From positions 3,183 to 67,182 of the forward strand of contig DYFB01000093.1 of the NCBI GenBank assembly GCA_020725405.1: a stretch of 64,000 nucleotides of DNA, written 5' to 3'. A program made the position numbers and the translations under genes. This document shows positions 1,610 through 63,628 of this stretch, piece by piece (position 1 is the first letter of the stretch; every line of letters starts with the position of its first letter). Source of the DNA: Symbiobacterium sp. (GTDB lineage: Bacteria > Bacillota > Sulfobacillia > UBA995 > UBA9673). The notes beneath the pieces are model-generated. The model searched no databases. It was given only the letters and a program-made list of their open reading frames with translations, and was not told the DNA's origin.

Positions 1610-1641
1610 CGCCGGGAGTGTCTTGGAGCGCGGATGGCGGC

Positions 1642-1670
1642 GGGGGGCGGCACCTCGCGGTGCCCCCCCC
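1642..1670 (+). terminator. GC-rich hairpin downstream of paralog A (gggggg-c-ggcacc / tcgc loop / ggtgcc-cccccc); no clear U-tract
   Basis: Inverted repeat read directly from the sequence. It sits 33 nt after the stop codon. Confidence 0.4.
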
Positions 1671-1862
1671 CGCTCCGGGCCGCCGATATGCTGTAGCGCA
1701 TTACTTGGTTGCGCAACTCGCTTAATAGAAACCGGGGGCCCGCTGCCTGGATAGACAGGAAGATGCCGGCCTGGTGTCGATTACCTTAGAACGTAGGTAT
1801 GCTGTACTATACCCACCCCCATAACTGGACGACATCCGGCGCAGGAAAGGAGGTGGTAACGA

Positions 1863-12210: not shown

Positions 12211-13650
12211 TTGGCCGTGGCCCTGGGCGATCTCGCCACCATCCACGCGGGCTTCCTCACCGCCTTCGTCCTTCGGTTCCACGGGACCCTCCCGGTGGCG
12301 AACTTCAAGGCCTACCTGCGCTCGGCCCCGGGCCTGACCCTTCTGGCCCTGGTCCTCCTCCTCTCCTACGGCCTTTACGACCTCCGCCCCCGGAGCTGGA
12401 GAACGGCGGCCTCCGGCGTGGTTGCGGCCGTCACTCTGCTCACGGCTTTCGGCATGGCCCTGAGCTTCGTCCTCCGGGCCTTCGCCGTCCCGCGAAGCGT
12501 CTTCCTCCTGGCTTGGGTGCTCAACATCCTGCTCCTCCTGGCCTGGCGCAACGGGGTCTGGCGGCTGGCCGTCCGGTCCTGGGGCCCCGAGGGGGCGGTG
12601 GTCGTCGGCCCGGCCGGCGAGGCCGAGGAGTTCGCCCAGAGGTTCTCCGCACCGCGGCGGACCGGCTACCAGGTGACGGCCGTGACCCTGACCGAGAGTC
12701 GGGAGGGACCCCTCCCGTGGTTCCCGGACGCAGCGGCCGCCCTGGATGAGGACGAAGGGGTCGGTCGGCCGGTCGACGCGGCCGGTTTCAGGGCGAGCGG
12801 CGGCCTCCCCGTCTATCCCCTGGCCGCCCTGCCCGCCCTCCTCCGCGGAGAGGCTGGAGGGCCGCCACCTGACGTCCTGGTCGTCACCCCGTCGACGGCC
12901 GGAGAGGACAAGGCCAGGGTCGCCGCGCTGGCCGCGCTCGCCGGGGCCAGACTCCTCATCGTCCCGAGCTACCGCGACCTTCTCGTCCTTGACACGAGGA
13001 TGACGCAGATAGACGACACCCTGGCCTTCGAGGTCGGGCCTTCCGGGATCCCGGCCCACCTTGCCTGGGCCAAGCGCCTGATGGATATCGGCTTCGCCCT
13101 CGCCGGTCTCGCTCTGACCCTTCCCCTCTATCCCCTGGTGGCCGCGGCGGTGGCGCTCTCCTCGCCCGGACCGGTCTTCTACCGCCAGGCGCGGGTGGGT
13201 CTCGGGGGCCGCGTCTACACGATGTGGAAGTTCCGGACCATGGTGGCCGACGCCGAGGCCGCGACAGGCGCGGTCCTGGCCAAGGCCGATGACCCCCGGG
13301 TCACCCCGGTCGGCCGGGTGCTCCGTCGGTTCCGCCTCGATGAGCTCCCGCAGCTCCTGAACGTCCTGGCCGGATCCATGTCCGTCGTCGGGCCCCGACC
13401 CGAGCGCCCGGAGTTCGCCCGGGAGTACGCCCGGATGGTGCCCTATTACGAACACCGGCATCATCTAAAGCCCGGCCTTACCGGGCTCGCCCAGCTCTCG
13501 GTCAGGTACGACACTCCGGTCGAGGAGAAGCTGCGCTACGACCTCCTCTACGCTAAACGCTACTCCCTGCTCCTCGACCTCAGGATAATCTTCTTGACGG
13601 CCAAGGTTGTCCTCATGGGGGAGGAGGCCCATTGGACTCCGGAGAGCTAG
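12211..13650 (+). CDS. Undecaprenyl-phosphate hexose-1-phosphate transferase (WbaP/WsaP-like priming polyprenyl glycosylphosphotransferase)
   Basis: N-terminal TM block. Bac_transf catalytic domain FYRQARVGLGGRVYTMWKFRTMVADAE...RVLRRFRLDELPQLLNVLAGSMSVVGPRPERPEF. Confidence 0.9.
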   Translation: MAVALGDLATIHAGFLTAFVLRFHGTLPVANFKAYLRSAPGLTLLALVLLLSYGLYDLRPRSWRTAASGVVAAVTLLTAFGMALSFVLRAFAVPRSVFLLAWVLNILLLLAWRNGVWRLAVRSWGPEGAVVVGPAGEAEEFAQRFSAPRRTGYQVTAVTLTESREGPLPWFPDAAAALDEDEGVGRPVDAAGFRASGGLPVYPLAALPALLRGEAGGPPPDVLVVTPSTAGEDKARVAALAALAGARLLIVPSYRDLLVLDTRMTQIDDTLAFEVGPSGIPAHLAWAKRLMDIGFALAGLALTLPLYPLVAAAVALSSPGPVFYRQARVGLGGRVYTMWKFRTMVADAEAATGAVLAKADDPRVTPVGRVLRRFRLDELPQLLNVLAGSMSVVGPRPERPEFAREYARMVPYYEHRHHLKPGLTGLAQLSVRYDTPVEEKLRYDLLYAKRYSLLLDLRIIFLTAKVVLMGEEAHWTPES

Positions 13651-15212
13651 CGGTCCTTCCCGAAGATGGAGATAAGCGAGCCGGTCCGGGGAGAGACCGG
13701 GGTCCTGCCCCCGGTACCTCTGTCTACATTCTCGTCACCGCTCCGGCGGCCCTCGCCTATCTCCTGCCGTGGGAACTCCTACCTCCGGAGGCCCACGCCG
13801 CGCTCCTGGCGGCCACAGCCGGTCTGACGCTGCTCCTTGCCGGACGCGACCTCGCTCTGGCTTTCTACCATGCTTTTCTCTGGTCCGGCCTCGTCTCGGT
13901 CGAGCCGGCCCCGGTCGACGTCATCTGGATCGTTCTCGGGCTCCACATGCTGCTCAGCCCGGGCTCGCGGCGGTGCCTGGCGCGAGGCTGGCGGACCCCG
14001 CTGGCCGGTCTTACCCTCGGCCTCGGGGTGATCGGCTTCGCTTCCGTGCCCGGGGCCGCCGACACCGGCCGGGCTCTCTTCTTCCAGGGGGTCACCTTCT
14101 ACCTCTCCTTGGTCGCGGTGTGGTTCATGGCCTCGTTCCGGGCGGCCGACCTGCGAAGGGCAGCCATTCTGGGCTGGGCGGGAGCGGCCCTCTTGGGAGG
14201 CCTCACCGGCATCGCCGGCTCGCTGGGTGGGGGCGACTACCGTACGGCCTTCTACCTCTACGACCGCCTCAAGGCGACGTTCAAGGACCCCAACTGCTTC
14301 GCGAGCTTCACGGCCTTCCCGTTGCTCCTTGCCCTCTACGAGGAGGTTTTCGCCGGCCGGCGGGTGAGCGCCACCGACGGGCCCGCCCGGCCCACCCCGG
14401 AAAGGCCCGTTTTCGGCCGCTGGGCGACACCCCTCGGCGCGGTCTGGCTCGCCGCCATCGGAGTGGCCATGTCCCGGGGCACCTGGCTCGGCCTTGTGCC
14501 CGCCGGGGCGGCCGGGCTTCTCGTTCAAGTCCGACCGCCAGGAATTGACCGGGGCCCCCGGGACGGGCCCGCGGAGGGGGCGGCGAAGGCCGGCAAGGCC
14601 TCCGGGCGGGGCGAGATCCCCCGCCGGGCGATCCGGCTCCTCACCGCGCTCCTTGTCAGCCTCCTCATCCTAGGCGTTGCCGGGGTCGCCCCGGCCATCC
14701 TCCAGCGCCTCGAGCTTAAGCCCTACGACGCCAAGCGCTGGAGCGGACAGGCCCAGGGCCTCGCCCTGTGGGTTGAGCGGCTGGCGGATCTGGAGGGCGA
14801 ACCTTTCACGGGCATCGGACCGGGGCACTACGAGGTGCGCTTTCGCTATGCCGCCCACAACATCTTTCTCCGGGCGGCCCTCGAGACGGGTACGGTCGCT
14901 CTCCTCCTTCTCCTCGGTCTCTACGCGGTGGCCCTGAGCCGGGTCGGACAGGTAATCCGGGGCGCGGTGGCCGGCTCCGCCGGAAAGGCCGCCTGGACCG
15001 ACGGGTCCGCCCCGGCCGAGCGACCCCTGGCCACGGCCGTCTTCGCCTATCTAGTGTTCACCGCGCTCTACGGCCTGGTCATCGATACTCTTCACTGGCG
15101 CCATCTCTGGATGGCCCTGGGCCTGGCCGGCTCCCTCGCCGCGGAGGGCGGCCCGGGCTGCGCGTCGAAAGCGGTGGGGGCTTCGGGGGAAGGGGGAGAC
15201 CATGACGAGTAG
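13632..15212 (+). CDS. Second O-antigen ligase / Wzy_C-family membrane protein (candidate glycan polymerase or ligase)
   Basis: Polytopic. Motifs GVAMSRGTWLGLVPAG and YAAHNIFLRAALETGTVALLLLLGLYAVAL. The start overlaps the end of the priming transferase. Confidence 0.7.
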   Translation: MDSGELAVLPEDGDKRAGPGRDRGPAPGTSVYILVTAPAALAYLLPWELLPPEAHAALLAATAGLTLLLAGRDLALAFYHAFLWSGLVSVEPAPVDVIWIVLGLHMLLSPGSRRCLARGWRTPLAGLTLGLGVIGFASVPGAADTGRALFFQGVTFYLSLVAVWFMASFRAADLRRAAILGWAGAALLGGLTGIAGSLGGGDYRTAFYLYDRLKATFKDPNCFASFTAFPLLLALYEEVFAGRRVSATDGPARPTPERPVFGRWATPLGAVWLAAIGVAMSRGTWLGLVPAGAAGLLVQVRPPGIDRGPRDGPAEGAAKAGKASGRGEIPRRAIRLLTALLVSLLILGVAGVAPAILQRLELKPYDAKRWSGQAQGLALWVERLADLEGEPFTGIGPGHYEVRFRYAAHNIFLRAALETGTVALLLLLGLYAVALSRVGQVIRGAVAGSAGKAAWTDGSAPAERPLATAVFAYLVFTALYGLVIDTLHWRHLWMALGLAGSLAAEGGPGCASKAVGASGEGGDHDE

Positions 15213-16122
15213 ACAGCGCCGCGCCATCGTGACCGGCGGCAAGGGCTTCATCGGCTCGCACCTCGTCGACCGCCTCGAGACCGAGGGCTGGCGGGTCCTG
15301 GTCATCGATAACCGCCTCGGGGAGCCTGAAAACGACGTGACGTCCGTGGCGGCCCAGAGGGCCGCGGCGGCCTTCCGGCCCGATCTGCTGGTCCACGCCG
15401 CCGCCCAGACGAAGGTCCTCTCCAGCATCCTCGACCCGGCCCGGGACGCCGAGTCCAACGTGATCGGAACTATCCGCATGCTCGAGGCGGCCCGGGAGGC
15501 GGGGTCCACCCGGTTCATCTTTCTCTCCTCGGCCGCCGTCTACGGAAACCCGGTCCGCCTTCCGGTCGGCGAGGACCACCCGCGCGGCCCGCTCTGCCCC
15601 TACGGGCTAAGCAAGCTCGCGGCCATGACCTATGTCGACCACTACCGGGTCCACCGGAATCTTCCGGCCGTGACCCTCATTCCGGCTAACGTCTACGGAC
15701 CTCGCCAGGAGACCGGCACCGACGGAGCGGTGGTCAGCTCGTTCATGTCGAGCGTGATCCGTGGCGACCCGCTTCCGGTCGAGGGTGACGGCGGGCAGAC
15801 GCGCGACTTCGTCTACATCGGGGACCTCGTCGAGGCCGTTTGGCTCGCCTGGCTGCGCCTCGATGCCGACCCGACCGGCTTGGAGTCCTGCCTCAATATC
15901 GGCACGGGCCTGGAGACGTCCATCTCCGACCTCGCCGCTCTGGTCGAGGAAGTGGCCGGGCGGAAGACCGGGCGGGTCGAGCGGCCGGCCCGGCCCGGCG
16001 ACATCCGCCGAAGCTGTCTTGCCGGGGAACTCGCTCGCCGGTCCCTCGGCTGGTCGCCGCGCCTGGACCTGCGGGCCGGCCTCGAGCTCACGTTCAACTG
16101 GTGGTCGCACCTCTCGGCCTGA
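15202..16122 (+). CDS. NAD-dependent nucleotide-sugar epimerase/dehydratase (short-chain dehydrogenase/reductase fold)
   Basis: N-terminal Rossmann motif IVTGGKGFIGSHLVDRL. Has the YxxxK region. SD gggggag before the ATG, which overlaps the previous stop. Confidence 0.85.
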   Translation: MTSRQRRAIVTGGKGFIGSHLVDRLETEGWRVLVIDNRLGEPENDVTSVAAQRAAAAFRPDLLVHAAAQTKVLSSILDPARDAESNVIGTIRMLEAAREAGSTRFIFLSSAAVYGNPVRLPVGEDHPRGPLCPYGLSKLAAMTYVDHYRVHRNLPAVTLIPANVYGPRQETGTDGAVVSSFMSSVIRGDPLPVEGDGGQTRDFVYIGDLVEAVWLAWLRLDADPTGLESCLNIGTGLETSISDLAALVEEVAGRKTGRVERPARPGDIRRSCLAGELARRSLGWSPRLDLRAGLELTFNWWSHLSA

Positions 16123-16194
16123 CGACCCGGCCGCGCTCGCTTCACCAGACCTACACCGGAGGAGTTCGCTCCGGACGCGCCGAATAATCGGCCC

Positions 16195-17538
16195 ATGTTC
16201 TCACCGGCGCTCCGGCGCACGATCCTCGTCTCCGCCGTCATCGTCCTGTCCGCGGCCGTCCTCCTGGCGGGATGCCCTCTGCGCCTCGCCCGGCCCGGGG
16301 TCACCATCATCCTCTGGGATGGGCCCCGCTGGGCCGACGAGTCGGGCAATCGCTACCACTGGGTCCAGAGGAAGATAGCCGAGTTCGAGTCGAGGCACCC
16401 GTTCGTCGAGGTCGTCTTCGTCCCCGTCGAGTGGTGGAACCTACGAGAGATGCTCGATGCGGCCAAGGAGGCCGGGCGGCTCCCCGACCTTGCCCCCTTC
16501 GATCTCAGCGCCGGAGGCATCAGCCTGGCCGAAGTGGAGGAGGGGCTTCTCGAGCCGGTCGAAGGGGTCATCGCCCGGCCCGGCGACCTCTCCGAGCAGG
16601 CCCTGGCGGCCTACGCCTACGGCGACCACCTCTGGGGCTTCCCGCTGAGCATGACCGGTCACGCCCTCCTCCTGAACCTCGACCTCTTCGCCGAGCGCGG
16701 GGTCGAGCCGCCGCCCGACGGGCGGTGGACCTGGGCTGAGTTCACCGAGACCTGCCGCCGGCTGACCTTCGACCGGGACGGCGACAAGGCGACCGACGTC
16801 TGGGGCTTCGCGGCCTACGTCCTGCCGGGCTACTACGAGATCTGGCCGTTCCTCTACGCGGCCGGCGCCAGGCCGCTATCGAGCGACCTCGAGACCTTCA
16901 CCTTCGACACGGAGGCCTCGCTCTCGGCCCTTCGAAAGCTGGTGGACCTCGTCTTCGCCCACAAGGCGGCCCATCCGATGACCGGAAGCGCGGCTGTGCG
17001 CAGCGTCTTCCAGCTCTTCGCCGACGTCGAGCGCCAGGAAGTGGCCATCGAGCCCTGGTCAGCCTGGGCCATTGACTACCTGTACTCGGAGGAGGGGACC
17101 ATCAAGAACTTCGCCGTGGCCGACTACCCCTACGACGGGCCAGGGTCGCCGGTGGGCGTGGGAGGTACAGCCGGTTTTGTCGTCTTCCGCCAGGACGATG
17201 CCCACAAACGGAACCTTGTCGTGTCTCTCGCCAACTACCTGACCGACACCGTCGCCCAGTACGAGCTGGCCCGCGGCTACCGGGTCTTCCCCGCCCGGCG
17301 GAGCGCCCTCGACCTCGATCCCTTCGGCGGTGACCCGGTCTACCGCCGGGCCGCCGAAATCGCTTTCCGCTCCGAGAGCCTGCCCAGGCATCCCCGCTGG
17401 CCGGAGATTGAACGGGTCATCCAGAAGGAACTCCAGCTCGCCCTCCTCGGCATCAAGACTCCGGAGAAAGCTCTCGAGGACGCCCGGGCCGCAGTCGAGC
17501 CTCTTCTGCCCCTTCTCGACTCCCCGCCGGGGGACTAG
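16195..17538 (+). CDS. Extracellular solute-binding protein, ABC sugar-type (family 1), lipoprotein-like; no cognate permeases nearby
   Basis: Signal/lipobox ...LLAGCP. SBP_bac_1-like N-terminus ILWDGPRW...VEVVFVPVEWWNLREMLDAAKEAGRLPDLA. Confidence 0.75.
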   Translation: MFSPALRRTILVSAVIVLSAAVLLAGCPLRLARPGVTIILWDGPRWADESGNRYHWVQRKIAEFESRHPFVEVVFVPVEWWNLREMLDAAKEAGRLPDLAPFDLSAGGISLAEVEEGLLEPVEGVIARPGDLSEQALAAYAYGDHLWGFPLSMTGHALLLNLDLFAERGVEPPPDGRWTWAEFTETCRRLTFDRDGDKATDVWGFAAYVLPGYYEIWPFLYAAGARPLSSDLETFTFDTEASLSALRKLVDLVFAHKAAHPMTGSAAVRSVFQLFADVERQEVAIEPWSAWAIDYLYSEEGTIKNFAVADYPYDGPGSPVGVGGTAGFVVFRQDDAHKRNLVVSLANYLTDTVAQYELARGYRVFPARRSALDLDPFGGDPVYRRAAEIAFRSESLPRHPRWPEIERVIQKELQLALLGIKTPEKALEDARAAVEPLLPLLDSPPGD

Positions 17539-18980
17539 AGGTCGGGCATCTCCAGACCGCTCTCCGCCCGGAGGCGGCCGAGGACCGAGCTCACCTCGCC
17601 CTTGAGCCGTTCGAGGCCCTCCTCGGTCGTCGCTTCACACCTGACGACCAGGGCCGGTTGGGTGTTCGACGCCCTGACCAGCACCCAGCCCTCAGGGAAG
17701 AGGACCCGGGCGCCGTCCACGGCGATGACCTCCCGGCCAGCCCGGGTGAAATGCTCCCTGACCTTGTCGACGACGTCGAATTTCGTCTCGTCCGGGCAGT
17801 CAACCCGAATCTCGGGGGTCGAGAAGTAGCGGGGGCGGTCGGCGAGGAGAGTCGATAGCGGCTCGTCGGCGGAGGCGAGGATACGGAGAAGCCGGGCCCC
17901 GGCGTAGATGGCGTCGTCGAAGCCGTAGTACTCGTCGGCGAAGAAGAGGTGGCCGGACATCTCCCCGGCGAAGAGCGCTCCGAGCTCTCGCATCTTGGCC
18001 TTGATGAGGGAGTGGCCGGTGCGGTAGAAGAGCGGATCCCCGCCCAGGCGGCGGACCTCGTCGACCAGGGCCTGTGAACACTTGACCTCGATGATGGCCC
18101 TGGCCCCCGGGTGCCGGGGCAGGATCTCCCGCCAGAAGAGAATCATCAGAACATCGCCCCAGAGAATCTCGCCCGCGTCGTCGACGACCCCGAGCCGGTC
18201 GGCGTCGCCGTCGAAGGCCAGGCCGACGTCGGCCCGCCTCTCGCGGACCACTCGTCTCAGCTCAGACAGGTTCTCCGGCTTGACCGGGTCGGGCCAGTGT
18301 CCCGGGAAATCGGCGTCAAGCTCGCACCACAGGGGCACGATCTCACAGCCGAGGTCCCGGTAGAGGGCCGGGGCGACGACCGAGGCGGCGCCGCTGCCGC
18401 AATCGACGGCGACCCGCAGAGGCCGTTCGCGGCGGGCCAGGCGGACGCGCTCCCGGATGTCGGCGGCATAGTCCGGGAGGGGGTCCAGCCGGTGATGAGC
18501 CTCGATGTCCTCCGGCCCGCCGGCCCCGGCGTTTTCCGGGGAGGGCCCCCGCCTCTTCTCGAGAGCGGCCGCGCGCCGACCTATCTCCCGGATGTCCTCG
18601 CCGTAGAGTGTCCCTGGCCCGAAGGCGAGCTTGAACCCGTTATAGGCCGCCTCGTTGTGACTCCCCGTGACCATGACCCCGGGGTCGAGGTTGTAGCGGA
18701 CGCGGGCGAAGTAGAAGACGGGGGTAGGAACGACGCCGAGGTCGGTGACCTCCCAGCCGGACTCGCGGAAGCCGCGGGCGATCCCGGCGGCGAGCTCCGG
18801 CGAGGACCGCCGGTTGTCGCGCCCGAGGACCATCCGCCGGGGTGCCGTGGCCGGTAGTCGCTCCTCGAGCCACCCGGCGAAGGCCCGGGCGATGAGCCGG
18901 GCCGTACCGCTCGTGAGCTCCGTTCCAGCCCTGCCTCTGATGTCGTACTCCCGGAAGATTCCGGGAGAGATCTCGGTCAC
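17535..18980 (-). CDS. Phosphomannomutase/phosphoglucomutase
   Basis: Active-site loop VMVTGSHNEAAYNGFKL. Overall PGM/PMM four-domain colinearity. I chose the start at the GTG supported by SD ggggagg (VTEISPGIFREYDIRG). The longer ORF-track N-terminus lacks an SD. Confidence 0.9.
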   Translation of the reverse strand: MTEISPGIFREYDIRGRAGTELTSGTARLIARAFAGWLEERLPATAPRRMVLGRDNRRSSPELAAGIARGFRESGWEVTDLGVVPTPVFYFARVRYNLDPGVMVTGSHNEAAYNGFKLAFGPGTLYGEDIREIGRRAAALEKRRGPSPENAGAGGPEDIEAHHRLDPLPDYAADIRERVRLARRERPLRVAVDCGSGAASVVAPALYRDLGCEIVPLWCELDADFPGHWPDPVKPENLSELRRVVRERRADVGLAFDGDADRLGVVDDAGEILWGDVLMILFWREILPRHPGARAIIEVKCSQALVDEVRRLGGDPLFYRTGHSLIKAKMRELGALFAGEMSGHLFFADEYYGFDDAIYAGARLLRILASADEPLSTLLADRPRYFSTPEIRVDCPDETKFDVVDKVREHFTRAGREVIAVDGARVLFPEGWVLVRASNTQPALVVRCEATTEEGLERLKGEVSSVLGRLRAESGLEMPDL

Positions 18981-19139
18981 GGGCGTTGACCTCCCCTGTG
19001 GGCCGGCCGGGAGGACGGCCCGCGCCGCGCACGGCCGGGCCGGACCTGACCCGCGCCTATAATGCCCCCTGACCTGCGGCGAGAACACGGGCCCTGCCCG
19101 GACCCGGGTCCGCACCACCCGGCCGTCGGCCTGAAGGAA

Positions 19140-20057
19140 TTAGGGGCGGGGTGTGTCGGAGGAGACGGCCGCCTGGCGCAGGCTCTCGTCCGATGCTTCG
19201 ACTAGGCCGGCGAGATAGGCCGCAAAAGCCGGCCGGATGTCCGGGCGCTTGAGGGCGAACTCCACGTTTGCCTGGAGATAGCCGACCTTATCGCCCACGT
19301 CGTAGCGCCGGCCCTGGAGTTCGCAGGCGAAAACCGGAACCGACGTGTTGAGAACCCTCAGGGCGTCGGTGAGCTGGATCTCTCCGTTCCTCCCGGGTGG
19401 CAGATCAATCAGGACATCGAAAATTGCGGCGTGAAGGAGATACCGGCCGACGATGGCCCAGAGTGACGGGGCCTCGTCGGCCTTCGGCTTCTCGACCAGG
19501 TCAAGAACGCGGAAAAGCCCCTTGGCGCTGGGGCCGGGTTTGACCGAGCCGTAGCGCTCTATCTCCTCCCGGGAGACCTTCCTCACCGCCACGAAGTTGC
19601 CCTCGAACTCGCTTGCCAGGCGCATCATCTGGCCAATGGCCGGGGGATCGGCGTCGAAGATCTCATCTCCTAAAAGGACGGCGAAGGGCTCGCCACCTAC
19701 GTGACGCCGTGCCTGCAGGATGGCGTGGCCCAGGCCGAGAGGCTCCTTCTGCCGGATGAAGTGTATGTCAGCGAGGTCGTGAATGCGACGCAGGGTCCCC
19801 AGGAGGTCCGGCCGCTTCGTGCGCCCGAGAAACTGCTCGAGCTCCAGCGACCGGTCAAAGTGGTCCTCGATAGCTCTCTTGCCGCGTCCGGTAATAATGA
19901 GGATATCCTCTATCCCAGCGGAAACGGCCTCTTCCACCACGAGCTGGATGATCGGAATGTCGACAATGGGAAGCATCTCCTTGGGCTGGGCCTTGGTCGC
20001 CGGCAGAAAGCGTGTGCCCAGGCCCGCCGCCGGAATGACGGCCTTGCGGAGGCGCAC
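19140..20057 (-). CDS. galU: UTP-glucose-1-phosphate uridylyltransferase
   Basis: MRLRKAVIPAAGLGTRFLPATKAQPKEMLPIVDIPIIQLVVEEA is a textbook GalU N-terminus. Confidence 0.9.
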   Translation of the reverse strand: MRLRKAVIPAAGLGTRFLPATKAQPKEMLPIVDIPIIQLVVEEAVSAGIEDILIITGRGKRAIEDHFDRSLELEQFLGRTKRPDLLGTLRRIHDLADIHFIRQKEPLGLGHAILQARRHVGGEPFAVLLGDEIFDADPPAIGQMMRLASEFEGNFVAVRKVSREEIERYGSVKPGPSAKGLFRVLDLVEKPKADEAPSLWAIVGRYLLHAAIFDVLIDLPPGRNGEIQLTDALRVLNTSVPVFACELQGRRYDVGDKVGYLQANVEFALKRPDIRPAFAAYLAGLVEASDESLRQAAVSSDTPRP

Positions 20058-20223
20058 TGCCTTTCCCTCCCTGGGATAATTCGGACATCAAAGCACTGGC
20101 AATACTTACACTTCTCGACCCGGAACACCTTCTTCCGTCACCGTCAGGGCCACGGGCTGTCTCTTTCGGCAGGGACAACCAGACCGGCTGTCGAAAGGGG
20201 CCAGCGAACTGAGGGGTGCTGCT

Positions 20224-21399
20224 TTGAGAATCGGCCTGGCGGTGGGTAAGCCGTTCGGCGGCCTGGGAGCCACGGACCTTCTTGAGTATTCCCTCGCTCT
20301 CGTTGCCCTTGGCCACGAGGTAGTTGTGGCCTGCCCGAGCTCGGCGGTGGACTCGGCCAGGCTCCCCGCGGGGCTGAGCATCCTGGCCGCCGGGATGGCG
20401 ATCTCCGGCAAGAAGAACCCGATCCCCTCCACCGTGCTGGCCTGCCGCCTCGCAGGCCTGCTGCGGACGGCAGGCGGCGATCTGGACGTCCTCCACGAAC
20501 CGGCTTTCCCGGAGTTTGGCTTCCGCCTGGCCCCGCTCGTGCGGGTGCCCTCCGTTCTTGACGTCCGGACCCTACCTGTGAGCTCCGCCGTGGCCCAGCG
20601 GCTGGGAGCGGCGATCCTGCGGGTGCAGCGGAGGCTCTACACCCGGACAGCCGTCATTGATCGGGCTCTCTCACTCACGATCTTCGGTGGATCGTATCCG
20701 GAATTCCCGCTTCCGATCAACACGGATCGCTTCCGCCCGGGCCGGAACGAGCAACTCCGGAACCAGCTCGGGGTCGGGCCACAAGACCTCCTGGGCGTTT
20801 ACGTCGGCTCCATGGCGCCGGTGCGCGGCCTTCCCGTGCTCCTTCAGGCTATCCGGACGGCTACTCGCGAGGGGGCCGACTTCAGATTCCTCTTGGTCGG
20901 GGGGGGCAGGGCGGACCTCCAAGCCCTGGCCGTCGAGGTGGACCGCCTGGGATTGGGCGACAGAGTCCGGTTGGAGGGCTACGTGGATTACGATAAGGTT
21001 CCGGGCTACCTCCAGGCGGCGGACTTCGCTGTCGCCTACGTTCCCCGCCGACCGCAGTTCGAGAGCCAGCCGCCCATAAAGACTCTCGAGTACCTGGCCG
21101 CGGGTCTCCCGACCGTGGCCACGAACACCTCCGGCAATCTTCGTTTCATTCATGACGGGGTTAACGGCCTGGTGAGCGAAGATCGGCCTCAAGCCCTGGG
21201 CGAGGCGCTAGCCCGGGTGGTCAAGGACCCGGAGCTCAGGGCGAGGCTCAGCTCTAACGCGCGGGCATCAGTGATGGAATGGGACGCAAAGCGAGTGGCG
21301 GCCGATCGTCTGGTGCCCGTCTACCGCGAGGCTATCGCTTCGTTCAGGAAGACGGCGCCGCAACCCTCTTCAGGAGCTGCCAGGCAAAGAGGACCATGA
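20224..21399 (+). CDS. Glycosyltransferase family 4
   Basis: GT4 C-terminal motif EYLAAGLPTVATNTSGNLRFIHDGVNGLV. TTG start after gagggg. Confidence 0.85.
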   Translation: MRIGLAVGKPFGGLGATDLLEYSLALVALGHEVVVACPSSAVDSARLPAGLSILAAGMAISGKKNPIPSTVLACRLAGLLRTAGGDLDVLHEPAFPEFGFRLAPLVRVPSVLDVRTLPVSSAVAQRLGAAILRVQRRLYTRTAVIDRALSLTIFGGSYPEFPLPINTDRFRPGRNEQLRNQLGVGPQDLLGVYVGSMAPVRGLPVLLQAIRTATREGADFRFLLVGGGRADLQALAVEVDRLGLGDRVRLEGYVDYDKVPGYLQAADFAVAYVPRRPQFESQPPIKTLEYLAAGLPTVATNTSGNLRFIHDGVNGLVSEDRPQALGEALARVVKDPELRARLSSNARASVMEWDAKRVAADRLVPVYREAIASFRKTAPQPSSGAARQRGP

Positions 21400-22168
21400 A
21401 CCGCGGATTGTGTATGAGGTAGCGTCGCCAGAGGCGTCTGGGTTCGGTAAGGAGCCGAAAGAGCCACTCGAGCCCGCTCTCCCGCATCCATCTTGGCGCC
21501 TGAGGCTTGGATCCGGTCAGGAAGTCTAAGGCTGCACCCACCCCGAGCATGACGGCGGAGATGCTACCCACGTGGGCCGCCATCCACCGTTCCTGCTTCG
21601 GGCAACCTAACCCGACGAACAGGATTCGGGCGCCGGAAGACTGGATTCTCTCGACGAGGTCGCCGTCCTCTTGGGCCGTCAGCGGTCGGAAAGGAGGGCT
21701 TTCAGCGAAGGCGATAGTGAGGCCGGGGAAGCGGTGAGAGAGAGTTGTCACCAACCGCTCGAGCACCTGTGGGTGCCCGCCGTAGAGGCCTATAGGCACC
21801 CCGTCCGCGGCGGCGAGGTCGCAGACAGCCAGGACGAGTTCAGGGCCGTAAACCCGGGTGGCATGGCCTACTCCCAGGCATCTCAGGGCCCATACCAGGG
21901 GCATACCGTCCGGGGTCACCAATTCGGCTTTATTGACGATTTCCCGGAAGTCCCGGCTATCCACGGCTTCCATAACCATATGGACGTTGGCGACGCAGAT
22001 GTAGCGGGACTCGTGCCGTCCGGCCAGCGACAGGACCTCACGGGCGGTCGCGGAGTAGCTGGTTGCGTCAACCCGCGTTCCCAGGACGTAGCGAGAGGAG
22101 ACCGGTTCGCGTCCCGGCTGGAGTTGTCCGTCTGGCCCGAACCTCGACTCTTTTGGGGCTGCGCTCAT
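21344..22168 (-). CDS. WecG/TagA/CpsF-family glycosyltransferase (GT26)
   Basis: ILFVGLGCPKQERWMAAH and LEWLFRLLTEPRRLWRRYLIHNPRFMVL are GT26 signatures. Its 3' end overlaps the convergent GT4 by 56 nt. Confidence 0.85.
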   Translation of the reverse strand: MSAAPKESRFGPDGQLQPGREPVSSRYVLGTRVDATSYSATAREVLSLAGRHESRYICVANVHMVMEAVDSRDFREIVNKAELVTPDGMPLVWALRCLGVGHATRVYGPELVLAVCDLAAADGVPIGLYGGHPQVLERLVTTLSHRFPGLTIAFAESPPFRPLTAQEDGDLVERIQSSGARILFVGLGCPKQERWMAAHVGSISAVMLGVGAALDFLTGSKPQAPRWMRESGLEWLFRLLTEPRRLWRRYLIHNPRFMVLFAWQLLKRVAAPSS

Positions 22169-22229
22169 GGCTGTTCCTCTCTTAGAAACCGAAGTGCGGT
22201 CATTCTGGGTGATGGAGACAGGCGGCGCG

Positions 22230-23228
22230 TCAGGAGTCCCTCTTCCTGTTGTTGCGCTCCCTCGACCGTCTTACCGCAAGATCGTAGATGTCTTGCAGCG
22301 TCTCGTAGTTCTGCTCGGCGCCGTACTTGGCCAGAAACCGCAGGCGCGCCGTCTTCCCCATCTCAGCGACATCGGCGGGGTGCGAGAAGACCCATCGAAC
22401 CCTATCGGCGAGGTCTTCTGAGTCTCCCGGTTCACAGAGGAGACCAGTCACGCCGTCCTCCACTATCTCGGCCATGGCCCCCAATCGGCTGGCAACGACA
22501 GGCAACCCTGCGGCGAAGGCCTCTACGAGAACCCTGAGGAAGGTCTCATACCAAACGGAAGGCGCGATAAGGTTCTTCGCCTCTTTCATCAGGGACTGGA
22601 CTTGCAGGGGCGTGACGGGTCCCAGGAGATGGACGGCCGGCCTTCCGGCCCTCCATTCCCGCAGCCTCCCCTCCAGCGGGCCGGTTCCGGCTATCTTGAG
22701 GGGAACCCTCGCCCCCAGCTTGTCCCACGCCCTCATCAAAGTCTCCAGCCGCTTCTCCGGCGATAGACGACCGACAAAGAGGGCAAACCCCCCTCCACGG
22801 ACCCCGGGACCCGGGTCCGGATGCACGAAGTTCGGCTTGACGACGATCCGATCCGGCGGGAGCCCTCCAGCGACAAATTTGCCCCTCCCGTGCTCCGTCA
22901 GAGCTATGTAGACATCGATCATCCTGGTCCACGTGCCGAAAAGAGGATGCACGGCGACCATACCAGCAGCCACGGCCGTGGCCGCTCCGCTCTCCCGGTA
23001 GCAGCGATGCAGCAGGGCCGGCCAAGCAACAGACCGGCCCACGCAGTCCTCGCAGGGTCGATACTGCCTGAGAAGCATAGCTCCGGGGCAGAGAAGGCGG
23101 AAGTTGTGGAGAGTCTGCACTACCGCCACCCCTGCTTCGCGGCACGCGTAGTAGGCCGACGGCGAGATGAGGGGAAAGGTGTAAACACAGTGGTTCCCTT
23201 TTCGGTTGACACGAGCACCCGAGGACAA
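22230..23228 (-). CDS. Glycosyltransferase family 4, apparently N-terminally truncated (possible pseudogene)
   Basis: C-terminal motif FAAGLPVVASRLGAMAEIVEDGVTGLLCEPGD and mid-domain HNFRLLCPGAML..PCEDC. The only start is a TTG with no SD. The frame is closed upstream. About 40-60 aa of the usual GT4 N-terminus are missing. Confidence 0.6.
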   Translation of the reverse strand: MSSGARVNRKGNHCVYTFPLISPSAYYACREAGVAVVQTLHNFRLLCPGAMLLRQYRPCEDCVGRSVAWPALLHRCYRESGAATAVAAGMVAVHPLFGTWTRMIDVYIALTEHGRGKFVAGGLPPDRIVVKPNFVHPDPGPGVRGGGFALFVGRLSPEKRLETLMRAWDKLGARVPLKIAGTGPLEGRLREWRAGRPAVHLLGPVTPLQVQSLMKEAKNLIAPSVWYETFLRVLVEAFAAGLPVVASRLGAMAEIVEDGVTGLLCEPGDSEDLADRVRWVFSHPADVAEMGKTARLRFLAKYGAEQNYETLQDIYDLAVRRSRERNNRKRDS

Positions 23229-23460
23229 GGACCGCCTGAAAACTCGCGAGGATCTCCGTCCTGAATTCGCGCAGCCGATCAGCTCGGTAGGCCCCGAAAA
23301 GGTATAGCAGAAGGAGCAAGGCGGCGGTGTAAACGGGGAGGACCCACTCCGGCCCCACCCGGAAGAGCTCGCGCCTGGGTAGCCACACCTCCCCGTACCT
23401 CAGGTAGGCCCCGAGAATCCAGGCCAGGAGGGCTGCGCCTGCGTCTATGGCGGCGGTCAT
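23196..23460 (-). pseudogene. 5' fragment of a second WbaP-like priming phosphotransferase (N-terminal TM region only), out of frame with and running into the truncated GT4
   Basis: MTAAIDAGAALLAWILGAYLRYGEVWLPRRELFRVGPEWVLPVYTAALLLLLYLFGAYRADRLREFRTEILASFQAVLVL is colinear with the N-terminus of the 12211 gene (MAVALGDLATIHAGFLTAFVLRFHG..LLALVLLLSYGLYDLRPRSW). The frame then degenerates into junk. No Bac_transf domain follows. Confidence 0.5.
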
Positions 23461-23605
23461 GGAGCGGTAGAGCATCAGGCTTGAACGAAAGGACACGTCT
23501 TCGCGGGGCTCCCGGATAGCGGAATCGCCTGGACTCGTCACATCCCTATGGGACAATAGCTCTTTCGGCAAGGCTCGCGGGAAGTCCTCCCAAATCGACC
23601 GGTCC

Positions 23606-24883
23606 TTACTTCCTCCGACCGGTCTCCGTTTGGGATTTCGACCCAAGCCGACAAACCAGCGGAAGGCCCAGCGCCGCAGCAAGCATTGCGGCGTAGCGCA
23701 TGTCCCAGAGGGTAAAGTCGACCAGGCCCTGCACAAGAAAGCCGGCCAGAGCCGCGGCCACTCCCGCCGCGATGGGCTGCGTCCGCGCGAGCCCTCTCAC
23801 CTCTCTCACAAGCGCGAGAGCCAACATGGCAGCCGCCAGGCAGCCGGCGAGCCCCAATCCGGCTAGAAGCTCGAGATAGAGGCTGTGACTGTGGTACACG
23901 GTCAGGCCCAGCGTCTCCTGCAGGACCCCTCCCGGGTTCATATACCCTACGCCCATCCCTGGCCTTGCGGTGAAGAGGTCTATCGCGCCGCGCCATACGG
24001 CCAGACGGAAGCTGTTGGTGGCGTAGCTGGGGTCGAGGAAGCGCCCGATGGGCCGACCGGCAAGCGTAAGGACGAAGGCAAGGGGCACGGACAGAGCCAG
24101 AGCAAGACCGACCGCCACGTACCGCGCGCGAGGACCCAGACGAGCGCCCCCGAGAAGCCAGGCGAGAACCACGGTTACGGCCACGAGGGAAAGAAAGGCT
24201 CCCCGCGATCCGGTCATCCCGATGGCCGCAAACCCCAGGACGACCGTGCCGGCGCAGGAAGCGATGCGCGCCCAGCCCCGCGTGATGGACCATAGCAGGC
24301 CGACCGTGACCGCCACGGCGAGAGATATCGACGCTCCAAGGACGGCATCGTGACCAAAAGGGGCTGCGACCCGGACGACGCCGATGCAGTACTGCCAGTA
24401 CGTGAGGGTTAGAATGCTCGCGAGGCTCACGGCGACCATGCCGCCGAACGTTCGGATGTCGCTCTCGTTATCCAGAGAGGCCAGAGTCAGGCAGAAGAAC
24501 CCGAATCCAAGGGCCAGCTCGGCCACCTTCCTCAGGCCATACCAGGCCTCTGGCGCACTTACTAGTGATGCGAACGCGACGGCGACGAATACCGCGTACC
24601 ACAAAAGGACACTTCGGCCTCGCTCCCGAAGGCGCCGCAGGCGGCCGGTTACCAGCGCGGTCAAAAGCAGAAGAGGAACGATAACGACGGTTGAGGAGAG
24701 GGGTAACCCCTCCCCCCTGAGGGCGAAGGTCGCCCGCCACTCCAAGGGGGACAGGAAGAAGGCGATACCCGTAGCCAGGGCTGGTCGCTTTGTGTAGAGC
24801 AGGGCCAGTCCGAGGGCTGCCACCCCGGCCGTTATAAGAAACGACCCGGGTGAAGCCTCAATAGGCAAAAGCGTTGGATCCAA
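23606..24883 (-). CDS. Third O-antigen ligase / Wzy_C-family membrane protein
   Basis: Motifs GMTGSRGAFLSLVAVTVV, NSFRLAVWRGAIDLF and HSHSLYLELLAGLGLAG. About 10-12 TM helices. Confidence 0.8.
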   Translation of the reverse strand: MDPTLLPIEASPGSFLITAGVAALGLALLYTKRPALATGIAFFLSPLEWRATFALRGEGLPLSSTVVIVPLLLLTALVTGRLRRLRERGRSVLLWYAVFVAVAFASLVSAPEAWYGLRKVAELALGFGFFCLTLASLDNESDIRTFGGMVAVSLASILTLTYWQYCIGVVRVAAPFGHDAVLGASISLAVAVTVGLLWSITRGWARIASCAGTVVLGFAAIGMTGSRGAFLSLVAVTVVLAWLLGGARLGPRARYVAVGLALALSVPLAFVLTLAGRPIGRFLDPSYATNSFRLAVWRGAIDLFTARPGMGVGYMNPGGVLQETLGLTVYHSHSLYLELLAGLGLAGCLAAAMLALALVREVRGLARTQPIAAGVAAALAGFLVQGLVDFTLWDMRYAAMLAAALGLPLVCRLGSKSQTETGRRK

Positions 24884-25124
24884 CGCTCACCCACCGTCCC
24901 GGCGGTGCGAACTCCCCTGGCCTGGAGACAATGCAACAGCGGGTAGTTCAGCGGATGGCGGAGACATCCTGCCTCAGGGGCCGGATCTTGGTTCCGGCCG
25001 GCTCATACGGAGGAACCCCGGAGGTGTCCGCGAAACTTGTCGGCGATCTCTCCGCTGACTACCTACCGCTCCTGGCTTTCCTCGCCGGGCAGCTCCTGCC
25101 GGGACGGTGAGGAGGAAAGGCTAG

Positions 25125-26171
25125 ATGCCGAAGGCGCTCATCACCGGGATAACCGGTCAAGACGGCTCCTATTTGGCCGAGTTGCTCTTGAGTAAGGGTT
25201 ATGAAGTTCACGGGATAATCCGCCGCGCCTCCATCTTCAACACGGAGCGGATTGACCACCTCTACGTGGACCCCCACGAGCCGCAAGCCCGGCTGTTCCT
25301 GCACTACGGGGACCTGACCGAAGCGACCGTCCTTCGGCGCATCCTCGAGCGCGTTCAGCCCGACGAGGTTTACCATCTTGGGGCGCAGTCCCACGTCAAG
25401 GTCTCCTTCGAGGAGCCGGAGTATACCGGGGACGTGGTGGCCCTGGGAACCCTGAGGCTGCTGGAGTCGCTTCGCGACTACTCCGCTCGAACGGAACGCC
25501 CGGTGCGGATATATCAGGCCGGTTCGTCGGAGATGTTCGGCAGTTCTCCTCCGCCGCAGAACGAAAGGACGCCCTTTCACCCGCGAAGTCCTTACGCCGC
25601 AAGCAAGGTCGCCGCTTACTGGTACGCCGTGAACTACCGCGAAGCATACGGGATGTTCATCTCGAACGGCATCCTCTTCAACCATGAGTCGCCTCGCCGG
25701 GGGGAGACCTTTGTCACCCGCAAGATCACCAGAGCGGCGACCCGGATCAAGCTCGGGCTGCAGGAGAAGCTCTACCTCGGCAACCTCGAGGCCAGGCGGG
25801 ACTGGGGGTTCGCCGGGGACTTCGTCGAAGCGATGTGGCTGATGCTCCAGCAGCCGGAGCCCGACGACTTTGTAATCGCCACGGGAGAGTCCCATTCGGT
25901 GCGCGAGTTCGTCGAGGCCGCCTTCTCCCGGCTCGATCTCGACTGGCAACGACATGTGGAGATCGACCCCCGGTACCTGCGACCGGCCGAAGTGGACTAC
26001 TTGCAGGGGGACGCAACCAAGGCCGCAGCCGTTCTCGCCTGGCGGCCGAGGGTCACCTTCGAAGGACTGGTCGAGATGATGGTTGAGCATGACCTCGAGC
26101 TCGCCCGACAAGAGCTCACTCTGCGTAATGCCGGCCATCGCTCCACCCAGCGAGGGGCGGTCACCAGGTGA
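25125..26171 (+). CDS. gmd: GDP-mannose 4,6-dehydratase
   Basis: [34 protein letters not shown] and full-length GMD colinearity. SD ggaggaaagg. Confidence 0.95.
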
Positions 26172-27181
26172 AGCGCGATGGAAACGCCCCCCGACACCAG
26201 ACCATCGGGCTTGAGGACAAGGTCTATATAGCTGGACACCGCGGGCTCGTGGGTTCGGCGCTGACCCGGCGTCTCACCCGGGAAGGGTTCAAGAACCTTA
26301 TCCTCCGAACGAGACAAGAGCTGGACCTTGCCGACCAAAGGGCCGTGGACGCCTTCTTCCGGAAGGAGCGCCCTGATTACGTCTTCCTGGCCGCGGCCAG
26401 GGTGGGAGGGATCCTGGCTAACCACACTCGACCGGCCGAATTCATTATGGAAAATTTGGCCATAGCGGTTAACGTCATTGGCGCCGCCCACCGCTCCGAA
26501 GTGAAGAAGCTCCTCTTTCTCGGCAGCTCGTGCATCTACCCCAGGCACTGCCCCCAGCCGATAAAGGAGGACTACCTTCTGACCGGGTCACTGGAGCCCA
26601 CCAACGAGCCCTACGCGGTGGCCAAGATTGCGGGCATCCATCTCTGCCAGGCGTACAACCGGCAGTACGGTACCCGCTACATATGCGCGATGCCGGCCAA
26701 CCTCTACGGCCCCGGCGACAACTTCGATCTCGAGACGAGCCACGTCCTGCCCGCGCTCATCCGCCGGTTCCATGAAGCCAAGACGGCAGGAGCGGCCGCC
26801 GTGACCGTGTGGGGAACCGGAACCCCCCGCCGCGAGTTCCTCCATGTGGATGACCTTGCCGACGCCTGTCTCTTCCTCATGAGGGAGTACGACGACCCGG
26901 CGATTATCAACGTGGGCGTGGGCGAGGACCTCTCCATCCGGGAGCTCGCCGAGCTGGTTGCCGAGGTGGTGGGCTATCAGGGCCGCCTCGTCTTCGATCC
27001 TTCGAAGCCTGACGGGACGCCCCGCAAACTCCTCGACGTCTCCCGACTGAGCCGGCTTGGCTGGAGAGCGAGCATCCCGCTCAGGGAGGGCATCGAGCAG
27101 ACCTATCGCTGGTACCTGGCCAATTTCGCCGGTCACGCGCCCCATTCGGCCGGTAGCCGTGAGGATACGGTGAAAGGCTAG
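26168..27181 (+). CDS. fcl: GDP-L-fucose synthase (GDP-4-keto-6-deoxy-D-mannose 3,5-epimerase/4-reductase)
   Basis: [19 protein letters not shown]...[16 protein letters not shown]. Start overlaps the gmd stop. Confidence 0.95.
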
Positions 27182-27208
27182 CCGTGGGGTGGATTGGGGG
27201 AGTCGGAG

Positions 27209-28501
27209 ATGCCTGCAGCCGGAAAGGGGATCGGAGCCTTCAAGCCCCCCGGCCTCGCGGCCGAGGGTGAACGTCGCATCGCCTGGGCCTGGGCCGACAT
27301 GCCGGTCCTGAGGTCGATAAGGGAGGCCTGGGCGCGGACGCGACCCCTCGCCGGACTCCGGGTGGGGGCTTGTCTCCACGTCACCACCGAGACGGCCAAC
27401 CTCGTCCTGACCCTCAAGGAAGGCGGCGCCGAGGTCGCCCTCTGCGCCTCCAACCCCCTCAGCACCCAGGACGACGTGGCCGCCGCCCTGAGCCTGTCCC
27501 ACGGCATCCCGACCTACGCCGTGCGCGGCGAGGACCGGGAGAGCTATTACCGCCACATCGCAGCCGTCCTGGCCACGGCTCCCGACTTCACCCTGGACGA
27601 CGGGGCCGATCTCGTGACAACCCTCCACCAGGAGCGCCCCGAGCTCATCGCTGCTGGCCCCGGCGCTCCCGGAGTCCGGGCCGGCACAGAGGAGACGACC
27701 ACGGGGGTCATCCGTCTCCGGGCCATGGCCGCCGACGGGGCCCTCCGCTACCCGATCGTCGCCGTCAACGACGCCCGGACCAAGCACTGGTTCGACAACC
27801 GCTACGGGACCGGCCAGTCCACCATCGACGGCCTCCTCCGGGCCACCAACCGCCTTATCGCCGGGTCGGTCTTCGTCGTCGCCGGTTACGGCTGGGTGGG
27901 CCGCGGTATCGCCGCCCGGGCCCAGGGGATGGGCGCCCGCGTCTACGTGGTCGAGGCCGACCCCCTGCGGGCCCTTGAGGCGGCCATGGACGGCTTCCAC
28001 GTCACGGACATGGAAGGGGCCGCGCCCGTGGGCGACTTCTTCGTGACCGCCACCGGGAACGTGAGCGTCATCGACGTCCCGCACTTCGAGAAGATGAAGG
28101 ACGGGGCCGTCCTGGCCAACGCCGGGCACTTCAACGTGGAGATAAACCTCCAGGGCCTGGCCGGCCTGGCCGAGGAGGTGCGGGAGGTCCGCCGCGAGGT
28201 TAGGGAATACCGGCTCCCGGGCGGCCGCCGCCTCTACCTCGTCGCCGAGGGTCGTCTGGTGAACCTGGCTGCGGCCGAGGGGCACCCGGCCGCCGTCATG
28301 GACCTGAGTTTCGCCAACCAGGCCCTGGTCCTCGAGTGGCTGGCCGCGGGAGCGACCCTCGCTCCCGGCGTCCACGCGGTCCCGGAGGAGATCGACCGCC
28401 GCGTGGCCGAGCTCAAGCTGGCCAGCCTGGGAATGAGGGTCCAGCGCCTGAGCGACCGCCAGAAGGAGTACCTCGCGGGCTGGCAGGAAGGAACGGAGTA
28501 G
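27209..28501 (+). CDS. ahcY: Adenosylhomocysteinase (S-adenosyl-L-homocysteine hydrolase)
   Basis: GIPTYAVRGEDRESYY, NAD-binding VVAGYGWVGRGIA and NAGHFNVEI. ATG start 6 nt after gggggag (MPAAGK...). Confidence 0.95.
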   Translation: MPAAGKGIGAFKPPGLAAEGERRIAWAWADMPVLRSIREAWARTRPLAGLRVGACLHVTTETANLVLTLKEGGAEVALCASNPLSTQDDVAAALSLSHGIPTYAVRGEDRESYYRHIAAVLATAPDFTLDDGADLVTTLHQERPELIAAGPGAPGVRAGTEETTTGVIRLRAMAADGALRYPIVAVNDARTKHWFDNRYGTGQSTIDGLLRATNRLIAGSVFVVAGYGWVGRGIAARAQGMGARVYVVEADPLRALEAAMDGFHVTDMEGAAPVGDFFVTATGNVSVIDVPHFEKMKDGAVLANAGHFNVEINLQGLAGLAEEVREVRREVREYRLPGGRRLYLVAEGRLVNLAAAEGHPAAVMDLSFANQALVLEWLAAGATLAPGVHAVPEEIDRRVAELKLASLGMRVQRLSDRQKEYLAGWQEGTE

Positions 28502-63509: not shown

Positions 63510-63623
63510 CGCTCATCAAGAGCAGGTGGAGGGACGGGCCCGATGAAACCCGGCAACCGGCCCACGGGGGAAGCCCCCGGGGCACGGTGCTAACTCCCGC
63601 AGGGCCCATCCTGAGAGATGAGA
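63510..63623 (+). ncRNA. SAM-I (S-box) riboswitch
   Basis: gCTCATCAAGAGcaGGTGGAGGGAcgGGCCCGATGAAACCCGGCAACCgg...GGTGCtAAcTCCcGCAgg...ctGAGAGATGAGa matches the S-box consensus core. P1 is closed by CTCATC / GATGAG. Confidence 0.85.
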
Positions 63624-63628
63624 ACCGC

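Follow-up and report, generated by a model that had tools for sequence, protein, structure and literature searches.

What remains when two genes of a surface-polysaccharide cluster have been joined out of frame, and can either remnant still yield a normal enzyme? This question is raised by a 64,000-nt stretch of Symbiobacterium sp. DNA (assembly GCA_020725405.1, contig DYFB01000093.1, positions 3,183 to 67,182 of the forward strand; hereafter the window). On its minus strand, an intact O-antigen polymerase/ligase-like gene (Wzy_C) is followed by a 109-nt spacer, a piece of a polyprenyl-phosphate glycosyl-1-phosphate transferase (PGT) gene, a piece of a GT4 glycosyltransferase gene in another frame, and a WecG/TagA-family gene. 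Here, we have examined an initial annotation of this region, which had proposed that a deletion joined the 5' end of a priming-transferase gene to the interior of a glycosyltransferase gene. On the basis of current results, the junction is best regarded as a non-functional deletion scar in a surface-polysaccharide gene cluster, a reading to which we give a probability of roughly 85%. In what follows, P0002, P0125 and P0126 are homologous proteins, and L001 to L007 are fetched loci or contigs that were compared with the window. The features around the junction are:

24883-23606, minus strand: Wzy_C gene (O-antigen polymerase/ligase-like), intact, 425 aa (PF04932, E 2e-16)
23605-23497, minus strand: Wzy-PGT spacer, 109 nt, native upstream region of the lost PGT gene, inside the L006 blastn alignment
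23496-23209, minus strand: PGT 5' remnant, TIGR03025-type, codons 1-96 from a GTG (phmmer, tblastn, DNA alignment)
23208-23183, minus strand: junction filler, 26 nt, CAACCGAAAAGGGAACCACTGTGTTT, assignable to neither parent gene
23192-22230, minus strand: GT4 (GT-B) glycosyltransferase remnant without its first ~80 codons (Glycos_transf_1, E 4.5e-29)
23496-22546, minus strand: read-through frame from the PGT start, 93 PGT residues plus ~223 out-of-frame codons over the GT4 remnant
22168-21344, minus strand: WecG/TagA-family glycosyltransferase gene, intact (PF03808, E 2e-60, full profile coverage)

Identity of the membrane-protein piece

An exhaustive phmmer search with the PGT fragment, covering 1.84 billion representative proteins, gave four matches. 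These included P0125, a 170-aa relative with 71% identity to the fragment (E 3.3e-29), and P0126, an intact 473-aa protein containing CoA_binding_3 and Bac_transf domains, residues 10-94 of which were aligned (E 2.7e-8). Only this exhaustive search found the relatives: a word-indexed protein search with the same fragment returned none, and neither Pfam nor NCBIfam scans gave a match (the latter even at E up to 10). When PGT orthologs were compared with the window by tblastn, the same piece was detected by L002 gene 4 (E 1e-37), P0126 (9e-14) and the PGT of L005 (3e-13), all alignments beginning at GTG 23496; the L002 PGT and the fragment were 60% identical across 121 aa. The N-terminus read from this GTG, VSFRSSLMLYRS, matches the MSFRSS, MAFRSS and MTFRFG of relatives. 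Hydropathy windows predicted two transmembrane (TM) helices (residues 12-32 and 47-71) and the start of a third. The intact orthologs scored above the TIGR03025 cut-off and below those for WbaP (TIGR03022) and WcaJ (TIGR03023). Taken together, the homology matches, the family scores of the orthologs and the TM helices indicate that the membrane piece is the 5' end of a polytopic PGT gene. The similarity to PGTs that the initial annotation had postulated is thus significant, and its term 'wbaP-like' is appropriate at the superfamily level, although too specific in view of the WbaP cut-off.

DNA alignment to the L006 and L002 PGT genes placed the end of PGT-derived DNA at 23209, that is, codons 1-96 plus 1 nt. 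Within it, a GGGG run at 23220-23218 is one base short relative to both genes, which represents a 1-bp deletion. In the three-frame translation, the membrane-like frame gives VSFRSSLMLYRSMTAAIDAG...FRTEILASFQAVLVLG and then sequence without homologs, as had been described before; PGT homology in the read-through translation stops at ...AVLVLG, and the open frame that contains the read-through frame from the PGT GTG extends over 22546-23736. The TM segment first reported here (88 aa, 23460-23196) is therefore real and far above chance, although its actual span is from GTG 23496 to 23209. No catalytic Bac_transf domain could be identified in the fragment or in the read-through open reading frame (ORF), and the sole Bac_transf domain of the window lies at 12211-13650. 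Similarly, a Pfam scan found no CoA_binding_3 domain in the fragment; P0126 and the PGTs of L005 and L006 possess it.

The initial annotation had also considered the fragment to be colinear with, and a duplicate of, the PGT at 12211. This idea was dropped, as BLASTP (best E 0.92) and hhalign (probability 0.2%) revealed no similarity between the two. Instead, the fragment is the remnant of a second, distinct, Wzy-linked PGT lineage.

The glycosyltransferase remnant

The GT4 ORF (23228-22230, minus strand) has 332 aa when read from TTG 23228, and its initial 12-16 codons are not GT4. Homology begins at H13/T17 of the ORF (23192/23182), corresponding to residues 79-83 of P0002, a homolog of 388 aa. 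At the protein level it can be followed from 23192 (P0002 H79), with P0002 residues 79-385 matching window 23192-22272 at 60.6%, and at the DNA level it starts, in comparison with L005, at 23182 (P0002 codon 82). The alignment shows that everything before a conserved HFHNTFPLISP block has been lost. The N-terminal truncation noted previously was thus confirmed, with ~80 aa lost rather than ~50. The remaining descriptions of this ORF also held: the TTG has no clear Shine-Dalgarno sequence, and the frame is closed upstream by a stop at ~23405, with neither a start codon nor GT4 homology above 23228. Measured against the PGT frame, the GT4 frame is shifted by +1 (23496-23228 = 268). Gene callers assign four different starts to the piece (230, 243, 296 or 332 aa), TTG 23228 being the longest.

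In a homolog search, 8000 candidates were scored, 7899 of which had E <= 1e-10. Among the best 120 of these 7899, nearly all homologs below the exact match were full length, mostly 384-443 aa with 52-61% identity. The lost N-terminal part left no trace in the 64 kb when the N-terminal ~80 aa of 119 homologs were used in tblastn (best E 0.01, chance level). Weak tblastn matches at 20317-20469 (minus strand) lie antisense within the intact gene of another glycosyltransferase, GT4b, and were judged spurious.

The C-terminal domain of the remnant is kept (PF00534, E 4.5e-29; PF13692, E 6.5e-30), including the EX7E motif sequence YETFLRVLVEAF. On the other side, the remnant covers only positions 79-157 of the 158-position profile of the N-terminal domain PF13579 (17.8 bits vs a cut-off of 29.7). 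A PDB sequence search covered the C-terminal domain only, and the N-terminal domain was mapped on a structure model. In the AlphaFold model of P0002 (pLDDT 88.7), residues 1-82 form β1 (2-9), α1, β2 (33-40), three helices and β3 (77-80). The invariant H7, Y10, G15, E16, E23 and L27 of the subfamily fall within the lost part, and with them the GGE loop. Because the missing part holds β1-β3 and this invariant loop, a normal GT-B enzyme would be impossible from the GT4 remnant. It should be noted that the subfamily has four invariant cysteines (P0002 C113, C125, C128 and C142), which are kept in the remnant and are associated with a low-confidence loop of the model (114-130); they may form a metal-binding insertion.

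Occurrence of the joint in other assemblies

The identical joint was found in L001 (JGI), L004 (GCA_020052435.1) and L007 (GCA_020725165.1), which together with the window makes four assemblies and two haplotypes. L004 is identical to the window over 14591-27193, the L001 contig spans the joint with one single-nucleotide polymorphism (SNP) relative to the window, and L007 carries it with three. One change, 23330 A>G, is common to L007 and L001. Read in the frame of the PGT fragment, it replaces Y56 by C, and in the PGT N-terminal alignment this position does not vary. Since four assemblies with two haplotypes share the same joint, it is not an assembly error. In the public gene calls on these contigs, the GT4 piece is an ordinary coding sequence (CDS) and the PGT fragment is not listed as a gene.

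Neither the window nor the fetched loci contain a second copy of the 26-nt filler, even with up to 6 mismatches allowed, and a repeat scan around the joint together with the ORF list revealed no repeats, insertion sequence (IS) elements or mobile-element genes there. Scanning the surroundings of the joint for promoters and terminators gave no informative signal either.

Parental arrangement and proposed origin

Three related metagenomic loci (L003, L005 and L006) have a Wzy gene followed by an intact PGT gene. L003 contains Wzy_C, the intact PGT P0126, a UDP-glucose dehydrogenase and an epimerase, in this order. In L006, the Wzy gene is followed by an intact 465-aa PGT, a UDP-glucose dehydrogenase, an epimerase, a GT4, a second Wzy-like gene and a methyltransferase. 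Its 425-aa Wzy has 76% aa identity to that of the window (dN/dS, the ratio of nonsynonymous to synonymous divergence, 0.22). By blastn, window 24876-23209 corresponds to L006 1623-3304 with 74.8% identity, from the Wzy gene through the spacer into the PGT 5' end, colinear to PGT codon ~89. L005 carries on one strand GT4b, Wzy, PGT, a UDP-glucose dehydrogenase/epimerase fusion, GT4a, Wzy2, the GT4 P0002, methyltransferases and a WecG homolog; five of its genes have homologs in the compositional island of the window described below. The closest full-length GT4, P0002, is co-oriented with the L005 PGT and lies ~6.5 kb downstream of it. As the two genes are part of one cassette on one strand, a single deletion explains the window joint. 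The synteny in the three loci therefore supports the original proposal that the PGT 5' end was joined out of frame to the GT4 interior by a deletion.

The comparison with related strains suggested at the outset was thus informative with regard to the intact Wzy-PGT pairs of L003, L005 and L006 and the P0002-like GT4 of L005, but gave no near-identical intact strain. Genome contigs were scanned with the Wzy protein and with an alignment of Wzy sequences, and metagenome contigs with an alignment of PGT N-termini and with a degenerate DNA pattern of 32 bases; no closer relative was found. With regard to L006, its GT4 (6914-8143) has been called with 251 aa and is in fact full length, as L005 GT4a residues 5-411 align in one frame by tblastn; the short call is a start-codon artefact and no second truncation.

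On the basis of these arrangements, we suggest that the ancestral cassette would have contained a Wzy gene followed by a complete polytopic TIGR03025-type PGT and, farther downstream on the same strand, a ~390-aa GT4 and a WecG-family transferase. A single deletion by illegitimate recombination would then have removed the region from PGT codon 97 to approximately GT4 codon 80, leaving the 26-nt filler and an out-of-frame joint. In an L005-like arrangement the deletion would have comprised ~6.5 kb, including the PGT body, the UDP-glucose dehydrogenase/epimerase, a second GT4 and a second Wzy-like gene; if the PGT and GT4 genes adjoined, the minimum would be ~1.4 kb. Neither remnant is expected to yield a normal enzyme, as the PGT piece would provide TM1-TM2 without Bac_transf and the GT4 piece would be devoid of β1-β3 and the GGE loop. 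Transcription from the kept PGT upstream region probably runs through the scar into WecG, and priming of the remaining glycan would need the other PGT at 12211.

Age of the deletion and selection on the remnants

Comparison of the PGT fragment with the intact L006 ortholog gave a dN/dS of 0.20 at a dS of 0.80. This ratio is the same as that of Wzy, which implies that nearly all of the divergence arose while the fragment still belonged to a functional gene. In a neutral simulation with substitutions only (no indels), the probability that a 316-codon frame stays free of stops was 0.18, 0.06 and 0.02 at 0.1, 0.2 and 0.4 substitutions per site, respectively. For a remnant that is not under selection, this would probably place the deletion at less than ~0.2 neutral substitutions per site. 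Few signs of decay are seen: the PGT fragment is short of 1 bp, and the population SNP changes the invariant Y56. In the GT4 remnant, 6 deviations were counted at 82 sites with at least 95% conservation, compared with 1-9 in similarly divergent intact homologs. An early signal at conserved sites (4 deviations vs a mean of 0.39) proved to be biased, the window sequence being an outlier, and the comparison with 1-9 deviations is the one matched for divergence.

Both the open frame of the remnant and the dN/dS of 0.2 suggest that the deletion is fairly young. As far as can be judged by comparing the loci, it appears to postdate the divergence from the nearest sequenced relatives (75% nt identity) and to be old enough for fixation in two haplotypes. 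The remodelling of the locus, which had been called recent, can thus be considered recent in a relative sense only.

A second PGT-GT4 joint in L002

L002 has a 1.2-kb insert that is missing from L006, and on either side of it the two loci share 95% identity. In this region, a PGT 5' fragment (82 codons) is followed by badly decayed remains of a GT4 of the same subfamily, disrupted by frameshifts, a stop and internal deletions, and then by a methyltransferase and an intact PGT. The insert lies between 436-bp direct repeats (933-1362 and 2596-3030; 91% identical), each consisting of the Wzy 3' tail, the spacer and PGT codons 1-82. The dS between the two copies is 0.19, compared with 0.09-0.10 from either copy to L006.

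For the joints of L002 and the window, three explanations are possible: separate deletions that affected the same pair of genes, a shared joint that was trimmed later, or a deletion allele that strains exchanged. A wider proposal would be that the Wzy 3' tail, spacer and PGT 5' end form a recurrent recombination arm for glycan-cassette swaps in this clade and that, if the joint is shared by descent, selection has kept the truncated GT4 open with some function that does not need the N-terminal half-domain. We consider this combined proposal improbable.

Weighing the alternative explanations

Several observations weigh against a plain non-functional scar. The GT4 remnant runs for 316 codons with neither a stop nor a frameshift, and its conserved-site deviations are within the range of intact homologs; we infer its loss of function from the missing N-terminus, without signs of decay in the remnant itself. 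The window and L002, two lineages with 75% identity, both have a PGT 5' end beside a truncated GT4 of one subfamily, with differing breakpoints, and if this joint is shared by descent, the window remnant would have stayed open far longer than neutrality predicts. Finally, no relative more than 95% identical with an undeleted locus was found, and the parental arrangement and the deletion size are derived from relatives with 45-76% aa identity. An assembly chimera or a sequencing frameshift in a genome with intact genes is almost certainly not the explanation. The window probably comes from a metagenome-assembled genome and the G-run at 23220-23218 is one base short, but the identical joint is present in four JGI/NCBI assemblies including a second haplotype. 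The single-base correction considered in the initial annotation would merge the frames, yet only into a chimera without ~360 aa of PGT and ~80 aa of GT4, as these codons are absent from the whole window and no single indel could restore them.

A truncated GT4 that is under selection and has a product, either a protein of the C-terminal domain initiated internally or a chimera, made by a +1 frameshift, in which PGT TM1-TM2 would anchor the GT4 remnant in the membrane, appears very improbable to us. It would account for the open 316 GT4-derived codons with their EX7E motif and four invariant cysteines, for conserved-site deviations that are not clearly in excess, and for the long-lived frame if the L002 joint is shared by descent, as neutrality would not preserve it; moreover, the GT4 frame is open up to ~23405 and is +1 to the PGT frame, so that a single shift would fuse both. 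However, the N-terminal domain has lost its GGE loop and three of its core β-strands, the longest ORF starts at a TTG without a clear Shine-Dalgarno sequence and gene callers disagree about the start, no frameshift-prone motif was identified, and the homologous L002 remnant has decayed, as expected of dead DNA. A different route to the joint would be cassette exchange or insertional recombination, in which the Wzy 3' tail, spacer and PGT 5' end served as a homology arm and the GT4-WecG side was imported, already truncated, from a different locus or strain. This route seems rather unlikely, but several findings speak for it: the 1.2-kb insert of L002 is bracketed by direct repeats of exactly this arm, the 95% identical L006 is without the insert, the divergence of the repeats resembles between-strain recombination, and the 8-kb segment containing the joint is a compositional island, with the strain break of L004 exactly at its edge. 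Set against these are the absence of a second copy of the arm and of an intact cognate PGT within the 64 kb, the same composition on both sides of the joint, and the co-orientation of the L005 parent genes in one cassette, for which one deletion suffices. A single deletion that left a non-functional scar is thus the reading we prefer.

Genomic context of the junction

Two further features of the window are relevant to this reading:

12211-13650, plus strand: the only intact PGT of the window (Bac_transf, E 2.4e-64; TIGR03025, 381.6 bits vs a cut-off of 295.55)
19140-27181: island of lower GC content at third codon positions (GC3), with both sides of the junction inside; it contains NTP-transferase, GT4b, WecG, GT4 remnant, PGT fragment, Wzy, GMD (GDP-mannose dehydratase) and epimerase

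GC3 is 0.74-0.80 in the genes of the island and 0.88-0.91 in the flanking genes, and the two sides of the joint are alike (0.75-0.80). The equal values on both sides, below those of the flanks, indicate that both parent genes came from one compositional island. The composition also suggests that this 8-kb segment is a horizontally acquired glycan cassette. Beyond 27193, the identity of L004 to the window ends: its positions 1-3288, compared with window 27194-28501, are 9% diverged over the AdoHcyase gene and unrelated beyond it. This divergence point is either a strain-level recombination or an assembly break, located exactly at the island edge. The WecG gene lies 61 nt downstream of the GT4 remnant on the same strand and has 64.6% aa identity to the last gene of L005. 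The convergent ORFs of WecG (minus strand) and GT4b (plus strand) overlap by 56 nt at their 3' ends (21344-21399). The sole Rfam match in the window was a SAM riboswitch (RF00162, 72.3 bits) at 63510-63624 on the plus strand.

Genes present in its relatives are gone from the island, namely those for a priming transferase, a sugar-nucleotide dehydrogenase/epimerase, a glycosyltransferase and a second polymerase-like protein. Thus, the glycan made from this locus probably differs from theirs. Our results are also of value for annotation, as the GT4 piece appears in public gene calls as if it were a regular glycosyltransferase (230-332 aa), and the PGT fragment is left uncalled.

Comparison with known systems

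At the level of single proteins, the PGT fragment is homologous to the N-terminal TM region of polytopic TIGR03025/Bac_transf PGTs (WbaP/WcaJ type), and differs from them in having neither CoA_binding_3 nor Bac_transf. The GT4 piece resembles the ~390-aa 'HFHNTFPLISP' subfamily of P0002-like proteins in its Glycos_transf_1 domain, EX7E motif, four cysteines and 52-61% identity, whereas residues 1 to ~80 of these proteins (β1-β3 and the GGE loop) have no counterpart in it.

At the level of gene clusters, gene remnants are a known feature of surface-glycan loci. The K loci of Acinetobacter baumannii contain itrB2, a redundant second initiating-transferase gene that was considered a remnant of a past event (PMC3628348). 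The window is similar in that a second priming-transferase gene has been left over while another initiating transferase would be the active one. On the other hand, itrB2 is a redundant gene that was not called a fragment (PMC3628348), whereas the PGT piece of the window has 96 codons and no catalytic domain. Among 178 Escherichia coli serogroups, 9 O-antigen clusters with gene remnants have been described, and such anomalies usually mean a relatively recent genetic event (PMC7685785). The scar of the window resembles the remnants in E. coli O-antigen and capsule clusters in that fragments of glycan genes lie inside an otherwise working cluster. It differs from them in that two genes are joined directly, with no IS element or repeat at the joint, in that the GT4 piece is publicly called as an ordinary CDS, and in its occurrence in an uncultured high-GC bacterium. 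Recombination in surface-glycan loci routinely leaves gene remnants of this type behind, and the scar of the window is another example of these known remnants, with no new mechanism.

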